The translations under genes were made by a program, and so were the position numbers. The notes under the pieces were generated by a model. The model did not search any database and had not been told where the DNA came from. It was given only the letters and a program-made list of their open reading frames with translations. Positions 187-62,781 of a DNA stretch of 64,000 nt are shown one piece after another; position 1 is the stretch's first letter, and every line of letters starts with the position of its first letter. The stretch spans positions 1,050 to 65,049 of the forward strand of contig DSBK01000016.1 in the NCBI GenBank assembly GCA_011046085.1, read 5' to 3'. Source of the DNA: Actinomycetota bacterium (GTDB taxonomy: Bacteria; Actinomycetota; Aquicultoria; UBA3085; Oleimmundimicrobiaceae).

Positions 187-283
187 TGAGATTGCCACGG
201 CTTCGCCTCGCAATGACTTGGATGGATTGCCACGCCTCGCAAAATTGCTACCGTTGCGGGGCGTGGCAATCTCGAGCTTACTT
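187..283. repeat. Hairpin-forming intergenic repeat. A 12-bp perfect stem gattgccacgcc/ggcgtggcaatc (225-236/260-271) flanks an inner cgcaa/ttgcg stem; it also carries the cctcgcaatgac module
   Basis: Direct reading. Modules cgtggcaatctc and cctcgcaatgac recur at 4402/4441, 47820 and 62733. Confidence 0.6.
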
Positions 284-4272: not shown

Positions 4273-4340
4273 AATAGTGAGGAGTGGGTAGAGGAATTCA
4301 GCCCTCAGTCGCCAGTCTTCAGGGAAACCAAAAATGTTTA

Positions 4341-4530
4341 GATTGGCTGGAAGCTGGAGACCAGACTGTTGAATTTCGTCATTGCGAGCGACCAAAGGGA
4401 GCGTGGCAATCCCTTTACCAGCGAGATTGCTTCGGTTTGACCTCGCAATGACGCTAAAATGTACTCCTGCCTGTCGGCAGACATGGCATTTTGGCTATTA
4501 TTCAACAGTCTCGAGACCGGAAGCTGGAGG
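4341..4530. repeat. Nested palindromic intergenic element of about 190 bp (MITE/BIME-like)
   Basis: Outer 12-bp perfect arms agactgttgaat (4363-4374) and attcaacagtct (4500-4511); inner 11-bp arms gtcattgcgag/ctcgcaatgac (4378-4388/4443-4453); core hairpin aaaggga-gcgtggcaa-tcccttt; plus the ctgcctgtcggcag hairpin and ggaagctggag repeats. Confidence 0.65.
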
Positions 4531-4548
4531 CTAATATTGGAGGAAATT

Positions 4549-12544: not shown

Positions 12545-12583
12545 AATCCCTTGCGATTTTTCTTAAACAACTTGAGGGTTGCG

Positions 12584-14302
12584 ATGGATAATCAAGACAT
12601 TGCTTTCATACTCAATGAAATTGGAGAAATGCTTGAAATTCAAGGTGAACATCCTTTTAGATCACGAGCTTACCACCGCGCGGCATATGCAATTCAAGGA
12701 CTAGCAGAGGACATAAACGATATTTATAAAGAAAATAATCTTGAAAAAATTCCTGGGGTTGGAAAGGGTATAGCCGAGAGAATAGTTGAGTTGCTTAAAA
12801 CGGGAAAGCTTGCTTATTACGAAGAGTTACAAGAGCATGTGCCTCCAGGTCTTTTGCAATTAATTGGCATTCAAAGCGTGGGTCCAAAAAAAGCCAAGCT
12901 TTTTTATGACAAACTTGGGATCGCTGACGTTGAAGAACTTCTTAAAGCTGCGGATGAACATAGGTTAAAGGATTTGCCTGGCATGGGGCCAAAGGCGGAA
13001 GAAAATGTTCGAGCTGGAGTACTGGAGTTTCAACACTTAAGAGAGAGAATACTTTTAAGCGAAGCTTATCCCCTGGCGGAAAACATAATCAGGCAGCTTG
13101 ATGAGTTTGATTTTATCCTCAGAGTAAGCGCGGCCGGAAGTTTAAGACGAATGAAGGAGACCATCGGAGATATCGATATTTTGGCGGCCAGCAATGAATT
13201 TTCTAAGACGATGGATGTTTTCTGCAATCTCTCAGAGGTGTCTCGTGTGCTTGCGAAAGGTGAGACCAAAAGCAGTGTTATCACGCAAATTGGTCTTAAA
13301 GTCGATGTAAGAGTTGTTTCACCCGAGCAATTTGGCGCCGCTCTTCAATATTTTACCGGCTCAAAAGAACACAATATTCATCTTAGAGAAATAGCAAAAA
13401 AGAAGGGGTTAAAAGTAAATGAGTACGGTGTTTTTGAAGTCAAAACGGAAAAAAGAATGGGAGGAGCAGCTGAGGAGGAGGTCTACAATTTGCTTGGAAT
13501 GCAATGGGTTTACCCTGTGTTAAGGGAAAACAAGGGAGAAATCGAGGCGGCAACCCTTAATAATCTTCCAAACATTGTTAATTTATCGGATATAAAAGGG
13601 GATCTTCATGTTCACTCAAATTGGAGTGATGGATTGAACAGGATTAAAGATGTTGCCAGGGCGGCAAAAGAGCGGGGTTATGAGTATGTGGCTATAAGCG
13701 ATCACGCTGAGAAGTTAAAGATTGCGGGAGGATTGACGGTTGATGATTACAGACGTCAATGGGAAGAGATTGAAGTTGCAAATAAAGAGATTGGCGGGGT
13801 AACCATCTTGCGAGGAACGGAAGTTAATATTGACAACGAGGGAAATGTAGATTTTGAAGATGATTTTTTAAGGGAGTTTGATGTTGTAACAGCATCAATT
13901 CATGGTGGATTTTCTCAGAATAAAGAACAGTTAACCAGGCGCATTTTGAGAGCAATTTATAATAAACACGTAAATGTTATCGGACATCCTACTGGCCGAA
14001 TTTTAGGCAAGAGGCCACCGTATTTGCTGGACCTGAAAGCAATATTTAAAGCGGCGGCGGAAACAGGAACTTTTCTTGAGCTCAATTCTTTTCCTGACAG
14101 ATTAGATTTAAAAGACGATTATCTTAAAGAAGCTAAGGATGTGGGGGTAAAATTTGTCATAAATACAGACGCTCACAGCATAGGACAACTTCGGTATATA
14201 TTTTACGGATTAGCAACGGCTCAGCGGGGCTGGCTAGAAGCTGGGGATGTAATAAATACGTATTCTTTAGAAGAAATGATGAAGATGCTGGGTAAGGAAT
14301 AA
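12584..14302 (+). CDS. polX: DNA polymerase X family protein with a C-terminal PHP phosphoesterase domain
   Basis: Pol-beta-like HhH N-terminus, PHP motifs HVHSNWSDG, ISDHA, NTDAH; ATG 12584 preferred. Confidence 0.8.
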   Translation: MDNQDIAFILNEIGEMLEIQGEHPFRSRAYHRAAYAIQGLAEDINDIYKENNLEKIPGVGKGIAERIVELLKTGKLAYYEELQEHVPPGLLQLIGIQSVGPKKAKLFYDKLGIADVEELLKAADEHRLKDLPGMGPKAEENVRAGVLEFQHLRERILLSEAYPLAENIIRQLDEFDFILRVSAAGSLRRMKETIGDIDILAASNEFSKTMDVFCNLSEVSRVLAKGETKSSVITQIGLKVDVRVVSPEQFGAALQYFTGSKEHNIHLREIAKKKGLKVNEYGVFEVKTEKRMGGAAEEEVYNLLGMQWVYPVLRENKGEIEAATLNNLPNIVNLSDIKGDLHVHSNWSDGLNRIKDVARAAKERGYEYVAISDHAEKLKIAGGLTVDDYRRQWEEIEVANKEIGGVTILRGTEVNIDNEGNVDFEDDFLREFDVVTASIHGGFSQNKEQLTRRILRAIYNKHVNVIGHPTGRILGKRPPYLLDLKAIFKAAAETGTFLELNSFPDRLDLKDDYLKEAKDVGVKFVINTDAHSIGQLRYIFYGLATAQRGWLEAGDVINTYSLEEMMKMLGKE

Positions 14303-14499
14303 GGAACAAGGATTAAGTTGTACAGGTTAAGAGGTTAATTCTTATAGCTTAAAACTTATTGCTTATGGTAGAGCTATAAACGATGAACAATGAACTAAAA
14401 AATTTCCAACCAAACGATCGATGGAGCATAGAGCAGAGGGCACAGAGAAAATTCAGATTGAAAATTGCAAAATGTAAATTTTAAATTGGAAAGTGGAGA

Positions 14500-37454: not shown

Positions 37455-38390
37455 ATGAAAAAACGAAAGAAATTGCCGCTTAAAATGAGAACGATTATAA
37501 AATCATTGAAAAAAATCAAAAAGGAATCTATTTTGCCCGTGTCAATTCTGGTTGCGGGAGAAGAGGATGTTGGAAAAAACTCTTTGATTGACAGACTGGC
37601 CATTGGGTCAAACGAGGTTTTTTCCACGGTGGAATTGAGCGATAAAAATATCTTGCCAGATTTTGCTTCAAGGCTAAGGAAGGCGAATTTGATTTTGGTG
37701 GTTGTTGATGTAACGGGAAAAATAAGTAAAAGAATCAAAAATTTGCTAACTTACTTAGAAGAGAGCAAGCTACCCTTTTTGTTAGTTATTAATAAAATAG
37801 ATTTGCCAAAAAATTTGGAAGCCCAACTTGAGCCTGCCAGCAATTATCTTGGCAAGTTTGTTTCAAAATTAGTCTTAATTTCCGTTAAAAAAGATATAAA
37901 TATCAATAATGAATTAATTCCAGCTATCATTGATCGGTCTGGTGAAAAAAAACTTTCTTTGGCAGTTAGTCTCCCTGTTTTTAAGTTGCCCATAATAGAG
38001 GAAATAATAAAAAGCACTGCCGCGCAGAATGCTGCTATAGCAGGAATACCCATTTATCCGGGCGCCAATATGCCGATACTTACGACGAATCAAATTAAGA
38101 TGATATTAAAAATCGCCGTTGTTTATGATAAAGAGATTGATGTTTCAAGGGCAAAAGAGGTTATTATGGTCGTTGGCGGAGGTTTTACATTTAGGGCCAT
38201 TGCCAGAGGATTAGTATCTTTTCTGCCGGTGATAGGTCTTGTCACCAAGGCCGCAATTGCATATTGCGGGACCGTGGCTATAGGAAAAACTGCCAATAAA
38301 TATTTCGAGAAGGGTATCAGTGATTTATCTGTTGATGAGACATGGGATATGGCGGCAGAAGCGGCGAGGAAGTTGAAGGTCGTAAATTGA
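37455..38390 (+). CDS. P-loop GTPase-like protein with a C-terminal DUF697-like membrane-associated domain
   Basis: G1-like AGEEDVGKNS, NKID (G4), C-terminal GGGFTFRAIARGLVSFLPVIG. Confidence 0.45.
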   Translation: MKKRKKLPLKMRTIIKSLKKIKKESILPVSILVAGEEDVGKNSLIDRLAIGSNEVFSTVELSDKNILPDFASRLRKANLILVVVDVTGKISKRIKNLLTYLEESKLPFLLVINKIDLPKNLEAQLEPASNYLGKFVSKLVLISVKKDININNELIPAIIDRSGEKKLSLAVSLPVFKLPIIEEIIKSTAAQNAAIAGIPIYPGANMPILTTNQIKMILKIAVVYDKEIDVSRAKEVIMVVGGGFTFRAIARGLVSFLPVIGLVTKAAIAYCGTVAIGKTANKYFEKGISDLSVDETWDMAAEAARKLKVVN

Positions 38391-40225
38391 AAAATCTTTG
38401 GCCAAAAATTGAAAAATGCCTGCCTTTTGTCGAGAAACCCGTTAGATATATAAACAATGAGTGGAACTCAAAACGAAAGATTCCCAAATCGGAAGATATA
38501 ATTTTTGCCTTAGCTTATCCTGATATCTACGAGATTGGGATGTCCAATCTAGCTATTCAAATTTTATATGAAATTCTAAACGAGTGTAAGAATATTGTGT
38601 GCGAGCGTGTTTTTGCTCCCTGGGTTGATATGGAAGCGAAAATGAGGGAAGAAAACATCCCTCTTTTTACCCTTGAATCTCATTTTCCCGTAAATAACTG
38701 CGATGTTTTGGGTTTTACGCTTCAATACGAGATGATCTATACAAATGTACTCAATATGCTCGATTTAGCCCAAATTCCACTTTTTGCTAAAGATCGAGAG
38801 GAAGCATGTCCTTTGGTTATAGGCGGCGGTCCATGTGTTTTTAATCCCGAACCTCTTGCGCCCTTTTTTGATCTCTTTATTATAGGTGATGGGGAAGATT
38901 TGCTTCTTGAATTTATTGGTGAATTTAAGAAGCAAAAGAGAGCTGGCGAAAAAAGGGAAAAGATATTAGAAATTTTAGCTAAAATGCCTGGGATCTATGT
39001 TCCTTCCCTATATAAGGTCGATTATCATTCGTTGGGGCTAATAAAAAAAATTGAACCAGCGTCAAACGAGATTCCAAAAACCATTACAAAAAATTTGTTC
39101 AAAGATATAAATGAGGCAAAGTTTCCCACCGCGCCAATTATTCCTTTTACGCAAGTGGTTCACGATAGATGTTCGCTTGAAATTGCGAGAGGTTGCACCA
39201 GGGGATGCAGATTTTGTCAGGCTGGGATGATATATCGCCCCGCTAGGGAGCGTTCTAAAGAAAATCTTAAAAATTTATCCGAAACCTTGTTAAACAACAC
39301 TGGTTATGAGGAAATATCGCTTCTTTCTTTGAGCAGCGGCGACCATAAAGAAATTAAAGGATTAATAACCGACATAATGATGCGAGACGAAGATAAGGGT
39401 ATTGCCGTATCTTTGCCTTCTTTAAGGATGGATTCATTCTCAGTAAAGCTTGCCAAGCAAATTCAAAGAGTTAAAAAAACGGGCCTTACGTTTGCCCCCG
39501 AAGCAGGAACACAACGGCTCAGAGATGTGATTAATAAGAATTTAACCGATGAAGATATACTTTTGGCTGCGAAGTCGGCGTTTAAGAATGGATGGAGGAA
39601 ACTCAAACTCTATTTTATGATTGGTTTGCCTACGGAAACGCAAGAGGATTTGCAGGGGATAGTTGAGTTGGTTAACAGGGTGGTTAGTTTGGGATTAGAT
39701 ATTGTTCCCCGCAATGAACGGGGAAGGTTAAAGATAAATGTTAATGCCTCTTCGTTTGTGCCCAAAGCTCATACTCCATTTCAGTGGGTTGGGCAGAATA
39801 CGCTGGATCAGTTACTAGAAAAACAAGGATTTTTAAAGAAGCACTTAAGAGGCAAGAATATTTCTTTCGGTTGGCATGAGGCGAAACTTAGTGTTATTGA
39901 GGGTGTTATGGCGCGAGGAGATAGGCGACTTGCTAAGGTAATTGAAATGGCCTGGAATTCAGGCTGTAAATTTGATGCATGGATGGAATATTTTGATTTT
40001 GAAAAATGGAGAGAGGCCCTCGAAAAAACAGATCTCTCCATCGATTTCTATGCATACCGTGAGCGCTCCCTAAATGAGGTTTTCGCGTGGGATCACATAA
40101 GCGCCGGAGTTACCAAAAACTATCTTGAGATCGAGTACAATAAGGCATTAAAGAAAGAAACGACCGGTGATTGTCGATTTGGTTCTTGCAACAAATGCGG
40201 GGTATGTGGATTGACTGATAGCTGA
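38387..40225 (+). CDS. B12-binding-domain radical SAM protein (TIGR03960-like)
   Basis: CxxxCxxC cluster CTRGCRFC; TTG 38387 start overlapping the upstream stop. Confidence 0.75.
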   Translation: MKNLWPKIEKCLPFVEKPVRYINNEWNSKRKIPKSEDIIFALAYPDIYEIGMSNLAIQILYEILNECKNIVCERVFAPWVDMEAKMREENIPLFTLESHFPVNNCDVLGFTLQYEMIYTNVLNMLDLAQIPLFAKDREEACPLVIGGGPCVFNPEPLAPFFDLFIIGDGEDLLLEFIGEFKKQKRAGEKREKILEILAKMPGIYVPSLYKVDYHSLGLIKKIEPASNEIPKTITKNLFKDINEAKFPTAPIIPFTQVVHDRCSLEIARGCTRGCRFCQAGMIYRPARERSKENLKNLSETLLNNTGYEEISLLSLSSGDHKEIKGLITDIMMRDEDKGIAVSLPSLRMDSFSVKLAKQIQRVKKTGLTFAPEAGTQRLRDVINKNLTDEDILLAAKSAFKNGWRKLKLYFMIGLPTETQEDLQGIVELVNRVVSLGLDIVPRNERGRLKINVNASSFVPKAHTPFQWVGQNTLDQLLEKQGFLKKHLRGKNISFGWHEAKLSVIEGVMARGDRRLAKVIEMAWNSGCKFDAWMEYFDFEKWREALEKTDLSIDFYAYRERSLNEVFAWDHISAGVTKNYLEIEYNKALKKETTGDCRFGSCNKCGVCGLTDS

Positions 40226-40244
40226 TAGTTAAAAGGGTAAAGAC

Positions 40245-40580
40245 GGGATTAAGGAGTAAGGAGAGTAACCGTAGTGTTTATTATGAGTATCTCACCCCAG
40301 TCTTATTGGAGTGATTTTCGGATACCGATCTGACGAAAGAAATCGCCAGACCTGTCTGCCGACAGGCAGTGATGGTAAAGACATCATTGCGAGGCTTCAG
40401 CCGAAGCAATCTTGCTGGTAAGTATAGCCTCTGTATTAGAAAGAGATCACCACGCTCACTTCATTCGCTCGTGATGACGATGAAGAAGCGAGGATATCAC
40501 TACGGGTTAAAGCTCTTGTGATGGCAAAAATAGGGTCATTGCGAGCCCCGATATTCATCGGGGCGCGACAATCTTATAAG
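40245..40580. repeat. Chain of intergenic hairpin repeats (GGAGTAAGG unit, ctgtctgccgacaggcag, cattgcgagg...gcaatc, gccccgat-attc-atcggggc)
   Basis: Modules shared with 187-470, 4341-4530, 47721-47875 and 62667-62740. Confidence 0.6.
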
Positions 40581-40633
40581 CGGTAGATGATGGAGTAAAG
40601 AATTTAAGGTTAACAAAGGATACAGTTTTGGAA

Positions 40634-41365
40634 ATGAAAAATGAAAATATGAAAATAACCAACAAACAGGTGTTGCATCGCCTAAGAATAAAATATGGCA
40701 AAAAGGATAGACTTAAATTTATATCTCATCTTGACCTTATCTCCACATTAGAAAGAGCTTTAAGGAGGGCGCGTCTCCCCTTTGTTTTAACGCAGGGGTT
40801 TAATCCCAGGGCAAAACTATCTTATGGCCCTCCTCTTCCGATTGGGATTGACAGTGAATCTGAATACGTAGATATATTTTTAAGCAAGAAGCTTGATTTA
40901 AAGGAAGTTACAAGTCGCATTAATTTAACGTTACCCGATGGCTTGCACGTTTTTCGGGCCGGATACATTCAACTTAACGAACCATCGATAACAAAATTTA
41001 TCGATCGTGCTAAATATCGAATAGAAATCAAAATCTTGGCCACAGACCTTGATGATGTTCAATGTTTAATTAACAAGTTGTTGTCAAAAAAGGAGCTTAG
41101 ATTTTTGAAAAGGGGAAAAGAAAAAAAAATATTTACACAAGAGGCAGTTTTTTCTATCCAAATTGTGGAGCGCAAGTTGGATAGAATTGTTTTAGAGGTT
41201 TTATTATCTATTGGAGATCAGGGGGAAATAAGGCCAGATATATTAATAGAGTTACTTTTTGATGGGTTTAAAAGCGGGATGGACTATGAAATACTGGGTA
41301 TTTATCGTATTGGGATGTATGCTAAAATTGGCAATGAACTTCATTGTCCTTTGGATACGAGGTGA
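40634..41365 (+). CDS. TIGR03936-family radical-SAM-linked protein (DUF2344)
   Basis: KFISHLDLISTLERALRRARLP...GFNPRAKLSYGPPLPIG. Confidence 0.75.
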   Translation: MKNENMKITNKQVLHRLRIKYGKKDRLKFISHLDLISTLERALRRARLPFVLTQGFNPRAKLSYGPPLPIGIDSESEYVDIFLSKKLDLKEVTSRINLTLPDGLHVFRAGYIQLNEPSITKFIDRAKYRIEIKILATDLDDVQCLINKLLSKKELRFLKRGKEKKIFTQEAVFSIQIVERKLDRIVLEVLLSIGDQGEIRPDILIELLFDGFKSGMDYEILGIYRIGMYAKIGNELHCPLDTR

Positions 41366-47703: not shown

Positions 47704-47720
47704 ATATTGGCTGGTAAAAT

Positions 47721-47875
47721 TAAGGAGTAAGGATTAAGGAGTAAGGATTAAGGAGTAAGGAGAGTAACTGTAGGGGTCATTGACGTGCCTACCGGCAGGC
47801 AGGCGAGGAGCGATAGCGACGTGGCAATCTCAAAGAATTGGAAAGTGCAAAATGTAAATCCAGGGAAGAATATTT
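47721..47875. repeat. Tandem 14-bp repeat taaggagtaaggat x3 followed by ggggtcattgacg, ccggcaggcaggc, cgtggcaatctc, attggaaagtg and tgcaaaatgtaaat modules
   Basis: Direct reading; modules shared with 40245-40274, 262-273, 14459-14495. Confidence 0.6.
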
Positions 47876-50842: not shown

Positions 50843-50917
50843 GGGGATGTAGCTCAGTGGGAGAGCGCCTCCTTGGCGTGGAGGAGGCCGAGGGTTCAAT
50901 CCCCTCCATCTCCACCA
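50843..50917 (+). tRNA. tRNA-Ala (anticodon GGC), CCA encoded
   Basis: Full cloverleaf: acceptor GGGGAUG/CAUCUCC with G3:U70, D-arm GCUC-AGUGGGA-GAGC, anticodon arm CCUCC-UUGGCGU-GGAGG, T-arm GAGGG-UUCAAUC-CCCUC. Confidence 0.9.
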
Positions 50918-51008: not shown

Positions 51009-51098
51009 GGGGTCAGGTCTTTAATCTTGACATTTTAAAAATGAAACTGTTTAATTAAATGTCAAAAAACAAGACCTGACCCCAAAGCCAAGCTTTGG
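51009..51098 (+). other. Long nested hairpin in the leuS 5' UTR (13-bp outer stem ggggtcaggtctt/aagacctgacccc; 9-bp inner stem ttgacattt/aaatgtcaa) followed by the ccaaagc-caa-gctttgg hairpin at the RBS
   Basis: Perfect inverted repeats read directly; contains a promoter-like TTGACA-17-TTTAAT. Confidence 0.5.
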
Positions 51099-62645: not shown

Positions 62646-62666
62646 GCAAGTTGTCGGCTCCCAGCC

Positions 62667-62740
62667 ATCAGTCTCCAGCTTAACTGGAAATTAAGTATGC
62701 AAAACTAAAAAGAAGTCATTGCGAGCGAAGCGCGGCAATC
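62667..62740. repeat. Copy of the intergenic repeat (cagtctccagct, gtcattgcgagcgaagcgcggcaatc)
   Basis: Shares modules with 4378-4411 and 4506-4527. Confidence 0.5.
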
Positions 62741-62781
62741 TAACTTCTCTACCTCGACGGGAGGGGTTGGGTTTGTCTGTT

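Follow-up and report, generated by a model that had tools for sequence, protein, structure and literature searches.

The bacterial interspersed mosaic elements (BIMEs) of Escherichia coli, in which REP or PU units alternate in orientation and are joined by short linker motifs, act in mRNA stabilisation or attenuation. Repetitive extragenic palindromes (REPs) were sorted by Di Nocera, De Gregorio and Rocco (BMC Genomics 14:522, 2013; PMC3733652) into GTAG-tagged and CGTC-tagged superfamilies. According to the sections of that survey used here, the latter includes dRS3 of Neisseria and RPE-4 and RPE-6 of Rickettsia; its members have the tag CGTC, often TGTC (also CCTC), a stem starting with A-T and T-A pairs and a short unpaired tail, mostly CCA. 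They occur mainly as head-to-head (HH) dimers with the tags outside, in several phyla, between co-directional as well as convergent genes, and "apparently lack a dedicated transposase", and the families CGTC-1 to CGTC-4 are described there with a contiguous 8-9-bp stem and a 4-5-nt loop. REPINs are lineage-specific and vertically inherited, according to the portion of the study consulted (10.1101/2022.05.22.493013). Here we analyse a chain of hairpin repeats in a 64,000-nt stretch of an Actinomycetota genome (assembly GCA_011046085.1, contig DSBK01000016.1, positions 1,050 to 65,049; the window), located in the spacer between the gene of a TIGR03960 B12-binding radical SAM protein (rSAM) and that of its partner TIGR03936. 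This spacer is probably a BIME-like cluster of REP-type elements, which accumulated in a permissive gap of the mreB...rodA-rSAM-TIGR03936-rng operon.

Modules of the spacer and their copies in the window

The genes of TIGR03960 and TIGR03936 are often adjacent or fused. In the window they are split by 408 bp of non-coding DNA (40226-40633), in agreement with the original prediction, which had put the gap at about 400 bp and had considered 40245-40580 to be filled with modules of a repeat family. Recurrent modules are indeed present, namely a heptamer tract (with module A), one B hairpin and three C hairpins in +, -, + order; however, they make up only about half of 40245-40580, and the remainder consists of the unique linkers 40276-40344, 40414-40442 and 40479-40534. 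The C copies were scored with a covariance model (R1) built from 25 C copies, all from other organisms, and the window was scanned with the filters off at E<0.05.

The heptamer-period tract (40205-40275, + strand) spans the stop codon of the rSAM gene, the last codons of which (..LTDS*) fall within CTGATAG CTGATAG, and it holds module A, GGGATTAAGGAGTAAGGAGAGTAACCGTAG, at 40245-40274. The linker that follows (40276-40344) is lineage-specific extra DNA with no significant repeat elsewhere (fold z = -0.30). The B hairpin occupies 40345-40376 (+), with the core CCTGTCTG-CCGA-CAGGCAG at 40351-40369 and the flanking stem GCCA/TGGT. The first C copy, C1 (ATCATTGCGAG-GCTTCAGCC-GAAGCAATCTT, 40383-40413, +; 26.1 bits, E = 0.0016), is the left arm of a tags-outside dimer; an unstructured linker (GCTGGTAA...AAAGA, 40414-40442; z = +0.36) leads to C2 (40443-40478, -; 19.6 bits, E = 0.036), which reads GTCATCACGAG...CGTGGTGATCTC on the - strand. 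The sequence 'cttcat...atgaag', originally listed as one of the modules, proved to be no family of its own but part of this reverse-oriented, degenerate copy. The next unique linker (40479-40534; z = -0.18) contains a weak ATCAC/GTGAT hairpin, and C3 (GTCATTGCGAG-CCCCGATATTCATCGGGG-CGCGACAATCTT) lies at 40535-40575 (+; 28.1 bits, E = 0.0006). The spacer ends with an unstructured, A+T-rich leader (40576-40633, +; z = +0.18), which carries the ribosome-binding site of the TIGR03936 gene. The segment 40488-40530 may be a fourth, decayed C copy, but its likeness to C2 is not significant (32 of 500 shuffles scored equally), and comparison of two of the unique linkers with each other revealed no significant relatedness.

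Among the spacer segments only B and C3 fold clearly better than shuffled sequences. The values are -14.4 kcal/mol for B (z = -3.19, equalled by 0 of 200 shuffles) and -20.9 kcal/mol for C3 (z = -3.75), while C1 is moderate (z -1.6). For the whole spacer a modest z of -2.45 was obtained on the sense strand and -4.87 on the antisense strand.

Comparison with the same gene pair in related genomes had been proposed as a check, and it was carried out. In the protein database the TIGR03936 protein had no match with an identity lying between 100% and 55%. The two nearest relatives by this protein, L004 (53%) and L005 (55%), keep the gene order, the former over the whole string and the latter, a 7.7-kb contig, from rSAM onward. 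Their rSAM-TIGR03936 spacers are 96 bp and 136 bp long and are made up of tandem heptamers immediately 3' of the stop codon (TATGGAA x3.7 in L004, GGCTGAT x5.3 plus TATGGAG x3.7 in L005) and a short A+T-rich leader; the 3' end of the leader in the window (ttggaaATGaaa...) resembles that of L004. No C copy was detected by R1 in the 28 kb of the relatives and no B by pattern search of L004, whereas the syntenic part of the window holds four to five copies. Since heptamer tracts occupy the same position in the relatives, the module A tract is ancestral, and module A was ruled out as an inserted element. On this comparison of sequences, with both relatives having shorter spacers that lack B and C, the approx. 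300 bp at 40276-40580 is a lineage-specific addition. The equivalent spacer of L005 has a 15-nt tandem repeat of its own (ACTCCCGACTAAGAG x2.7, positions 1000-1039 of that contig), which indicates that the gap collects different repeats in different lineages.

A second copy of the composite unit was found by alignment, BLAST and R1 at 4376-4485 (-), between the aspartate-semialdehyde dehydrogenase (Semialdhyde_dh) and argJ genes. The segment from B through C2 (40351-40480) aligns with it on the opposite strand, and the order of elements is the same in both: B, approx. 14 nt, C(+), a linker starting with GCTGGT and ending with AAAG, C(-). B is identical in 17 of 17 bases and the spacer of about 14 nt that follows differs in sequence between the two. 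C1 with the start of the linker and the copy at 4415-4451 (-) share 87% identity over 38 nt, and C2 shows 78% identity over 41 nt to 4376-4416. The ends of the linker at 40414-40442 match the 9-nt linker of the 4378-4452 dimer, the spacer copy having 20 nt extra, and the dimer of the composite carries GTCATTGCGAG at both outer ends. In the foot helix of C2, ATTGC/GCAAT has become ATCAC/GTGAT, that is, two positions are changed on each side and 5 of 5 pairs are kept. The inverted position of the paralogue, together with this compensatory change, points to units of approx. 130 bp that were copied within the genome in either orientation with their pairing maintained. Both this paralogue and the shorter, B- and C-free spacers of the syntenic relatives support the idea of insertion or accumulation that had been raised for the locus. 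Miniature inverted-repeat transposable elements (MITEs) are marked by terminal inverted repeats, a target-site duplication and a related full-length insertion sequence; here the dimer has the outer ends given above, no direct repeat was evident at the flanks of the two composites, and no parent insertion sequence was found among the ORFs of 240 foreign C loci. NNCAGNC-type tracts with a period of 7 nt (4296-4330, 4340-4365 and 4510-4535) flank the array at 4290-4530.

For the 9-mer CATTGCGAG the window gives a count of 6, where 0.26 would be expected; 0 of 100 shuffles reached this count. Seven C copies were found by R1: 188-217 (-), 4378-4413 (+), 4423-4452 (-), the three of the spacer, and 62715-62742 (+), i.e. 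about one per 8-9 kb; a partial match was additionally obtained in an interrupted copy at 47776-47832. Among 8 C copies of the window the tag is CGTC in 3, GGTC or AGTC in 4 and ATC in C1. Exact copies of B are present at 440-457 and, reversed, at 4467-4483 (-), and module A recurs with 28 of 29 bases at 47745-47773, where the match is the end of a TAAGGAG x6 array. All arrays of the window sit between co-directional genes. The claim that the spacer holds the largest of them is borne out by module count, with 5 modules against at most 4 at 188-457, 4290-4530, 47713-47832 and 62650-62742. The 14-nt unit at 47719-47761 is present in 3 copies in the window and in the JGI assembly and in 2 copies in the ENA assembly; thus the heptamer tracts behave as microsatellites.

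Some further details of these arrays were observed. Between proA and nadD (47713-47832) a TAAGGAG/14-nt tandem array is followed by the end of module A (..GAGTAACTGTAG), and at 47776-47832 a B-like hairpin interrupts the 5' box of a C copy (GTCATTG, ACGTGCCTACCGGCAGGCAG, GCGAGGAGCGATAGCGACGTGGCAATCTC), with the appearance of a nested insertion. The C copy at 188-217 (-) is a strong one, 5' of the first genes; an inverted repeat with 12-bp arms (GATTGCCACGCC...GGCGTGGCAATC, 225-273) adjoins it and looks like a long hairpin derived from C, and at 434-470 a second GGCAGGCAGG comes after a B copy. A TAAGGAA x3.6 heptamer array lies across the stop codon of a DNA polymerase X-family gene (array 14293-14317, open reading frame (ORF) 12551-14302); like module A, it is a Shine-Dalgarno-like heptamer tract.

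The B and C hairpin families and described repeat systems

The scan pattern GTCATTGCGAG-N6-32-GCAATCTC gave at least 120 loci in viral contigs and at least 120 in GTDB species genomes, and all statistics on foreign C copies given below rest on the matches listed from these two sources. Among them are genomes labelled Planctomycetota, Chloroflexota, Nitrospirota, Alpha-, Gamma- and Deltaproteobacteria and Bacteroidota, and further labels such as Oscillospiraceae, Sporomusa, Patescibacteria, Omnitrophota, Caldatribacterium and Armatimonadota, among others; the isolates listed include Sporomusa malonica, Chloroflexus islandicus, Flavobacterium defluvii, Chryseobacterium herbae, Mucilaginibacter and Litorivivens. 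The architecture of C is YGTC-ATTGC-GA-G(variable stem-loop)C-G(A/T)(A/G)-GCAAT-CTC, which comprises a 5-bp foot, a 2 x 3 internal loop (GA opposite GAA, GTG or GCG), an invariant G-C pair and an apical helix whose length ranges from 2 to more than 8 bp and which is different in nearly every copy. The 3' triplet is GAA in 53%, GTG in 27% and GCG in 10%, and the loops are mostly GNA triloops of 3 nt. Triloops of the GNA type and tandem G.A pairs point to single-stranded DNA hairpins of unusual stability. A pyrimidine (T or C) precedes GTC, at position -1 and outside the search pattern, in 94% of 410 copies. CTC or CCC forms the tail, which the pattern fixed in part, and canonical TGTC REPs with CTC tails are present in the same loci.

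The helices of C show covariation. In the inner helix 46 double-change cells were counted, against 13.6 +/- 2.8 in shuffles and at most 16 in slid controls. Each of the 28 foot-helix variants with changes on both sides, including the ATCAC/GTGAT of the window, keeps 5 of 5 pairs, so that no both-sided change breaks the pairing, and in the variants ATTAC, ATCGC, ATTCC and ATCAC the AT start is mostly kept. On the tagged strand of the inner stem G.T occurs 34 times against 13 for A.C, which gives a modest hint that one single strand matters.

Neighbouring C copies not more than 150 nt apart are predominantly arranged with the tags outside (51 of 76 pairs '+-', the others being 9 '-+', 8 '++' and 8 '--'), and by crude gene calls the genome loci lie in 81 co-directional, 32 convergent and 18 divergent gaps. 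The ORF clusters that recur at 240 C loci belong to a phage capsid/portal module, to an ABC-F ATPase and to a response regulator. In the viral contigs (IMG/VR, L006-L125) C is often found once per intergenic gap, just 5' of the ribosome-binding site; L033 (6 copies in 6.6 kb), L015 and L061 are rich in it, about 30 of the C-bearing contigs have the capsid/portal gene module in common, and related contigs carry C copies at similar positions with different apical helices. Another widespread hairpin, CTCTCCCTTGA(T/C)GGGAGAGG(GT...), stands beside or instead of C in phage gaps (L016, L079, L098, L101 and others), and GTAG-tagged palindromes of the GTAGGGGCGACC...GGTCGCCCCTAC type were seen in L304.

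Module B was followed with a 17-mer scan of metagenome contigs and is widespread in unrelated contigs (L246-L365, CCTGTCTGCCGACAGGCAGG) among the matches listed. In these matches the flanks that were not part of the search are CC in 95% and G in 93%, which extends the module to the 20-mer CCTGTCTG-CCGA-CAGGCAGG, a hairpin of 8 bp; one of its pairs is T.G, a wobble on the sense strand only. B is not generally linked to C, being nearly absent from 1.9 Mb of C-bearing loci; it is occasionally nested within a C copy (L250, L319, L351), as at 47776-47832 in the window. No general signal of variable complementary flanks (basal stems) was found across the B copies. In some groups of contigs (L255, L299, L314; L247, L271, L341) B lies within longer conserved, apparently structured sequences.

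As far as the consulted sections of the 2013 survey describe it, the CGTC superfamily shares with C the YGTC tag, the stem starting with A-T and T-A, perhaps the unpaired tail of 3 nt, the HH dimers, the location between co-directional or convergent genes, the distribution over several phyla and the lack of any dedicated transposase that could be found (PMC3733652). However, C does not have the stem and loop format given there for CGTC-1 to CGTC-4: its foot is 5 bp long, the internal loop is GA/GWR and the apex is hypervariable. Its tail, as far as the search pattern left it free, reads CTC and not the CCA of the published CGTC families, and the first base of the tag is C in only 3 of the 8 window copies. 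Its split stem with a self-complementary 'complex loop' is the form reported in the same pages for GTAG-3. Canonical CGTC REPs such as TGTCATTCCCGCGAAGGCGGGAATCCA are present in the same fetched loci as C. The peptide VIAGLDPAIH, attributed in that text to intragenic CGTC-3 copies (PMC3733652), is what GTC-ATY-GCC-GGG... would encode, which suggests nearly the same tag and foot as in C. Thus C is at most a further sub-type of the CGTC/TGTC-tagged REP superfamily, set apart by the text descriptions of the survey, and it may overlap with CGTC-3. The C motif and its complement were sought in published texts and none was found in this context, the only hits being primers in unrelated papers.

The spacer is similar to the BIMEs of E. 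coli in that palindromic units alternate in orientation (+, -, +) around a partly conserved linker, within an operon and 3' of a stop codon. On the other hand, the unit sequences are unrelated to the enterobacterial palindromic units (PU) Y and Z, which are GTAG-3 REPs combined with motifs such as A, B, L and S, and the spacer also contains a B hairpin, a heptamer microsatellite and long stretches of unique linker. With the REPIN-RAYT systems (Bertels & Rainey 2011) C has in common that inverted doublets are commonest, the copy number is high and the location is extragenic. It differs in its tag (YGTC, not GTAG), in the arms of its doublets, which usually have different apical helices, and in the absence of a RAYT, in those systems a single-copy gene with REPs on its flanks, or of another Y1 transposase near the copies (approx. 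71 kb around the spacer and approx. 4 kb around 240 foreign copies). Unlike the REPINs, C has identical ends across phyla and copies in viral contigs among the matches listed.

Heptanucleotide tandem repeats of cyanobacteria, the STRR sequences, were reportedly described by Mazel and co-workers in 1990. Module A is like them a short intergenic array of 7-nt units whose copy number varies between assemblies, but the unit is the Shine-Dalgarno-like TAAGGAG, the organism is another one and the tracts start at or across stop codons. A CRISPR array was ruled out by eye, on the irregular spacing and alternating orientation, and resemblances to integron attC sites and K-turns were dropped as their consensus sequences do not fit.

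Flanking genes and other features of the region

The gene upstream of the spacer (38342-40225, +) matches NCBIfam TIGR03960 with 854 bits at a cutoff of 462, and the downstream gene (40634-41365, +; ATG at 40634) matches NCBIfam TIGR03936 with 181 bits. The product of the latter is 100% identical to the public protein HDP69460.1 (HDP69459-HDP69463 are proteins of the source genome), and the gene is followed by the RNase E/G gene (rng). From 30 to 51 kb there is a single string of co-directional genes: mreBCD, pbp2, rodA, a GTPase gene, rSAM, TIGR03936, rng, L21, L27, obg, proB and proA. The gene tables of approx. 71 kb around the spacer contain housekeeping genes only.

The spacer sequence is the same in two independent public assemblies (ENA, JGI) save a single-nucleotide polymorphism at 40285 (G/A, window versus ENA and JGI), and a third assembly (Logan, from another run) agrees over the overlap; this one covers only the 3' half, its contig starting at approx. 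40424, probably because the repeats break short-read assembly. The agreement of the assemblies means that the spacer is real. The source samples are JGI 3300022547, ENA ERZ27245514 and SRR7787775.

The window has approx. 40% G+C, the NCBI label of the source metagenome-assembled genome is 'Actinobacteria bacterium', and the closest named relatives of the TIGR03936 protein are from Lutispora and Chloroflexota. An AAATGAA heptamer repeat extends across the start of the TIGR03936 gene (40632-40657) and provides several ATGs 7-8 nt apart; a matching feature is kept in L004 (9985-10015), although it is of low complexity. Just 5' of the leucyl-tRNA synthetase gene (51106) there is an inverted repeat at 51009-51083 with 27-nt arms of 85% complementarity (GGGGTCAGGTCTT...AAGACCTGACCCC), for which no T-box call was obtained from Rfam.

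Probable origin and possible role of the spacer

The data show that the modules are repeats, that they are structured and covary, that the composite has a paralogue and that the relatives lack the modules; the view of the spacer as a BIME-like REP cluster builds on this. The ancestral spacer would have been approx. 100-140 bp long, composed of the heptamer microsatellite at the stop codon and the A+T-rich leader. Approx. 300 bp would then have been added, as the composite of B with the C(+)/C(-) tags-outside dimer and a single C(+), separated by unique linkers. The elements may have arrived by copy-and-insert or by duplication of units of 30-130 bp, and by analogy the mechanism could act on single-stranded hairpins. 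The chain is probably co-transcribed with the operon, since no promoter- or terminator-like site was recognised in it and the arrays lie between co-directional genes; the message would then carry three or four stable hairpins (B, C1 and C3 on the sense strand). By analogy with the REPs of E. coli these hairpins may hold up 3' exonucleases, provide sites for processing or attenuate weakly, and may thus affect mRNA decay; as an outcome, rSAM could be uncoupled from the expression of TIGR03936-rng and their ratio changed.

Several observations weigh against this picture. Unique sequence without a traced source makes up roughly half of the addition. No target-site duplication was identified. No transposase, including the Y1 transposase Pfam, is present in the gene tables covering approx. 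71 kb, and among 4552 clustered ORFs from 240 C loci, within approx. 4 kb, neither a recurrent transposase nor a parent insertion sequence was found. C has only a weak orientation bias relative to genes, with counts of 21 to 8 in the genomes and of 31 to 25 in the viral contigs by crude gene calls. No presence/absence polymorphism was seen, the relatives being as distant as 53-55% protein identity, so the timing and the unit of insertion are deduced from distant sequences.

Selection could have played a larger part, if the spacer were an intercistronic RNA module, with hairpins recruited or kept because they set the ratio of rSAM to TIGR03936-rng by protection of the upstream message or through processing by RNase III or by RNase E/G, the gene of which lies two genes downstream. 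The sense orientation is that of B, C1 and C3, and the first and last of these are very stable (z -3.2 and -3.75); the T.G pair of B, which wobbles on the sense strand only, and the 34 to 13 excess of G.T over A.C in C stems point in the same direction, as do the operon, uninterrupted here by a terminator or promoter, and such roles of REPs mentioned in the consulted part of published work (PMC3733652). Against this, the relatives have spacers of 96-136 bp without the modules, the same modules occur in unrelated operons, and the sense strand folds less well than the antisense strand (z -2.45 against -4.87). We therefore regard a selected module of this kind as doubtful.

The 5' untranslated region of E. 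coli rne is long and autoregulatory, and the present gap is likewise long (408 bp), structured and just 5' of two genes, one of which codes for an RNase E/G homologue, so that a riboswitch-like or autoregulatory leader for TIGR03936-rng, or an independent small non-coding RNA gene, could be imagined. This is quite improbable. At gathering score only the tRNA at 50843-50914 was found by Rfam 15 in the window, and in the spacer, at E up to 10, nothing relevant appeared, the best hits being snoRNA models with 16 bits against a gathering score of 65. There is no sigma-70-like promoter or intrinsic terminator in the spacer, the extra region is absent from the syntenic relatives, and its parts are generic repeats of other operons and other phyla. 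The discrete small RNA or dedicated structured RNA offered as an option in the original prediction is thus not supported, and no separate gene product is needed to explain the spacer. The last possibility is a coding region in decay, for example what is left of a fused rSAM-TIGR03936 linker or a small gene now dead, or else an error of assembly. It could call on the frequent adjacency or fusion of the two families, on a 50-aa ORF at 40369-40521 and on the break of the Logan assembly inside the spacer. It is essentially refuted: stops abound in all three frames, tblastn searches with the proteins of the relatives match the flanks only, the 50-aa ORF has no family match, and two independent assemblies span the spacer and agree, with the third confirming its 3' half.

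A bolder proposal concerns the modules themselves. C, and separately B, might be members of pan-bacterial, phage-borne hairpin families in which the foot and the internal loop are constant and the apex is replaced in almost every copy. We consider this unlikely at present; if true, it would mean a very widespread, undescribed process of hairpin copying, e.g. on single-stranded DNA or with template-independent regrowth of the apex, of which the spacer would be one visible product, or alternatively a universal host factor that recognises the GA/GWR foot.

As a REP cluster the locus is nothing out of the ordinary for bacteria, and only the cross-phylum C sub-type might repay further work. The cluster accounts for the separation of two genes that normally lie close together and for the break of short-read assemblies in the spacer; for annotation it means that the 50-aa ORF and any small RNA call in the spacer are probably spurious, and for the organism it marks a point where the expression of the operon may be uncoupled. 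The 2013 survey of REPs left the question of how CGTC-type elements spread without a dedicated transposase, and the C hairpin is a convenient case for it: with identical ends in many phyla and in viral contigs and with clean covariation, its conserved foot offers a testable recognition site.

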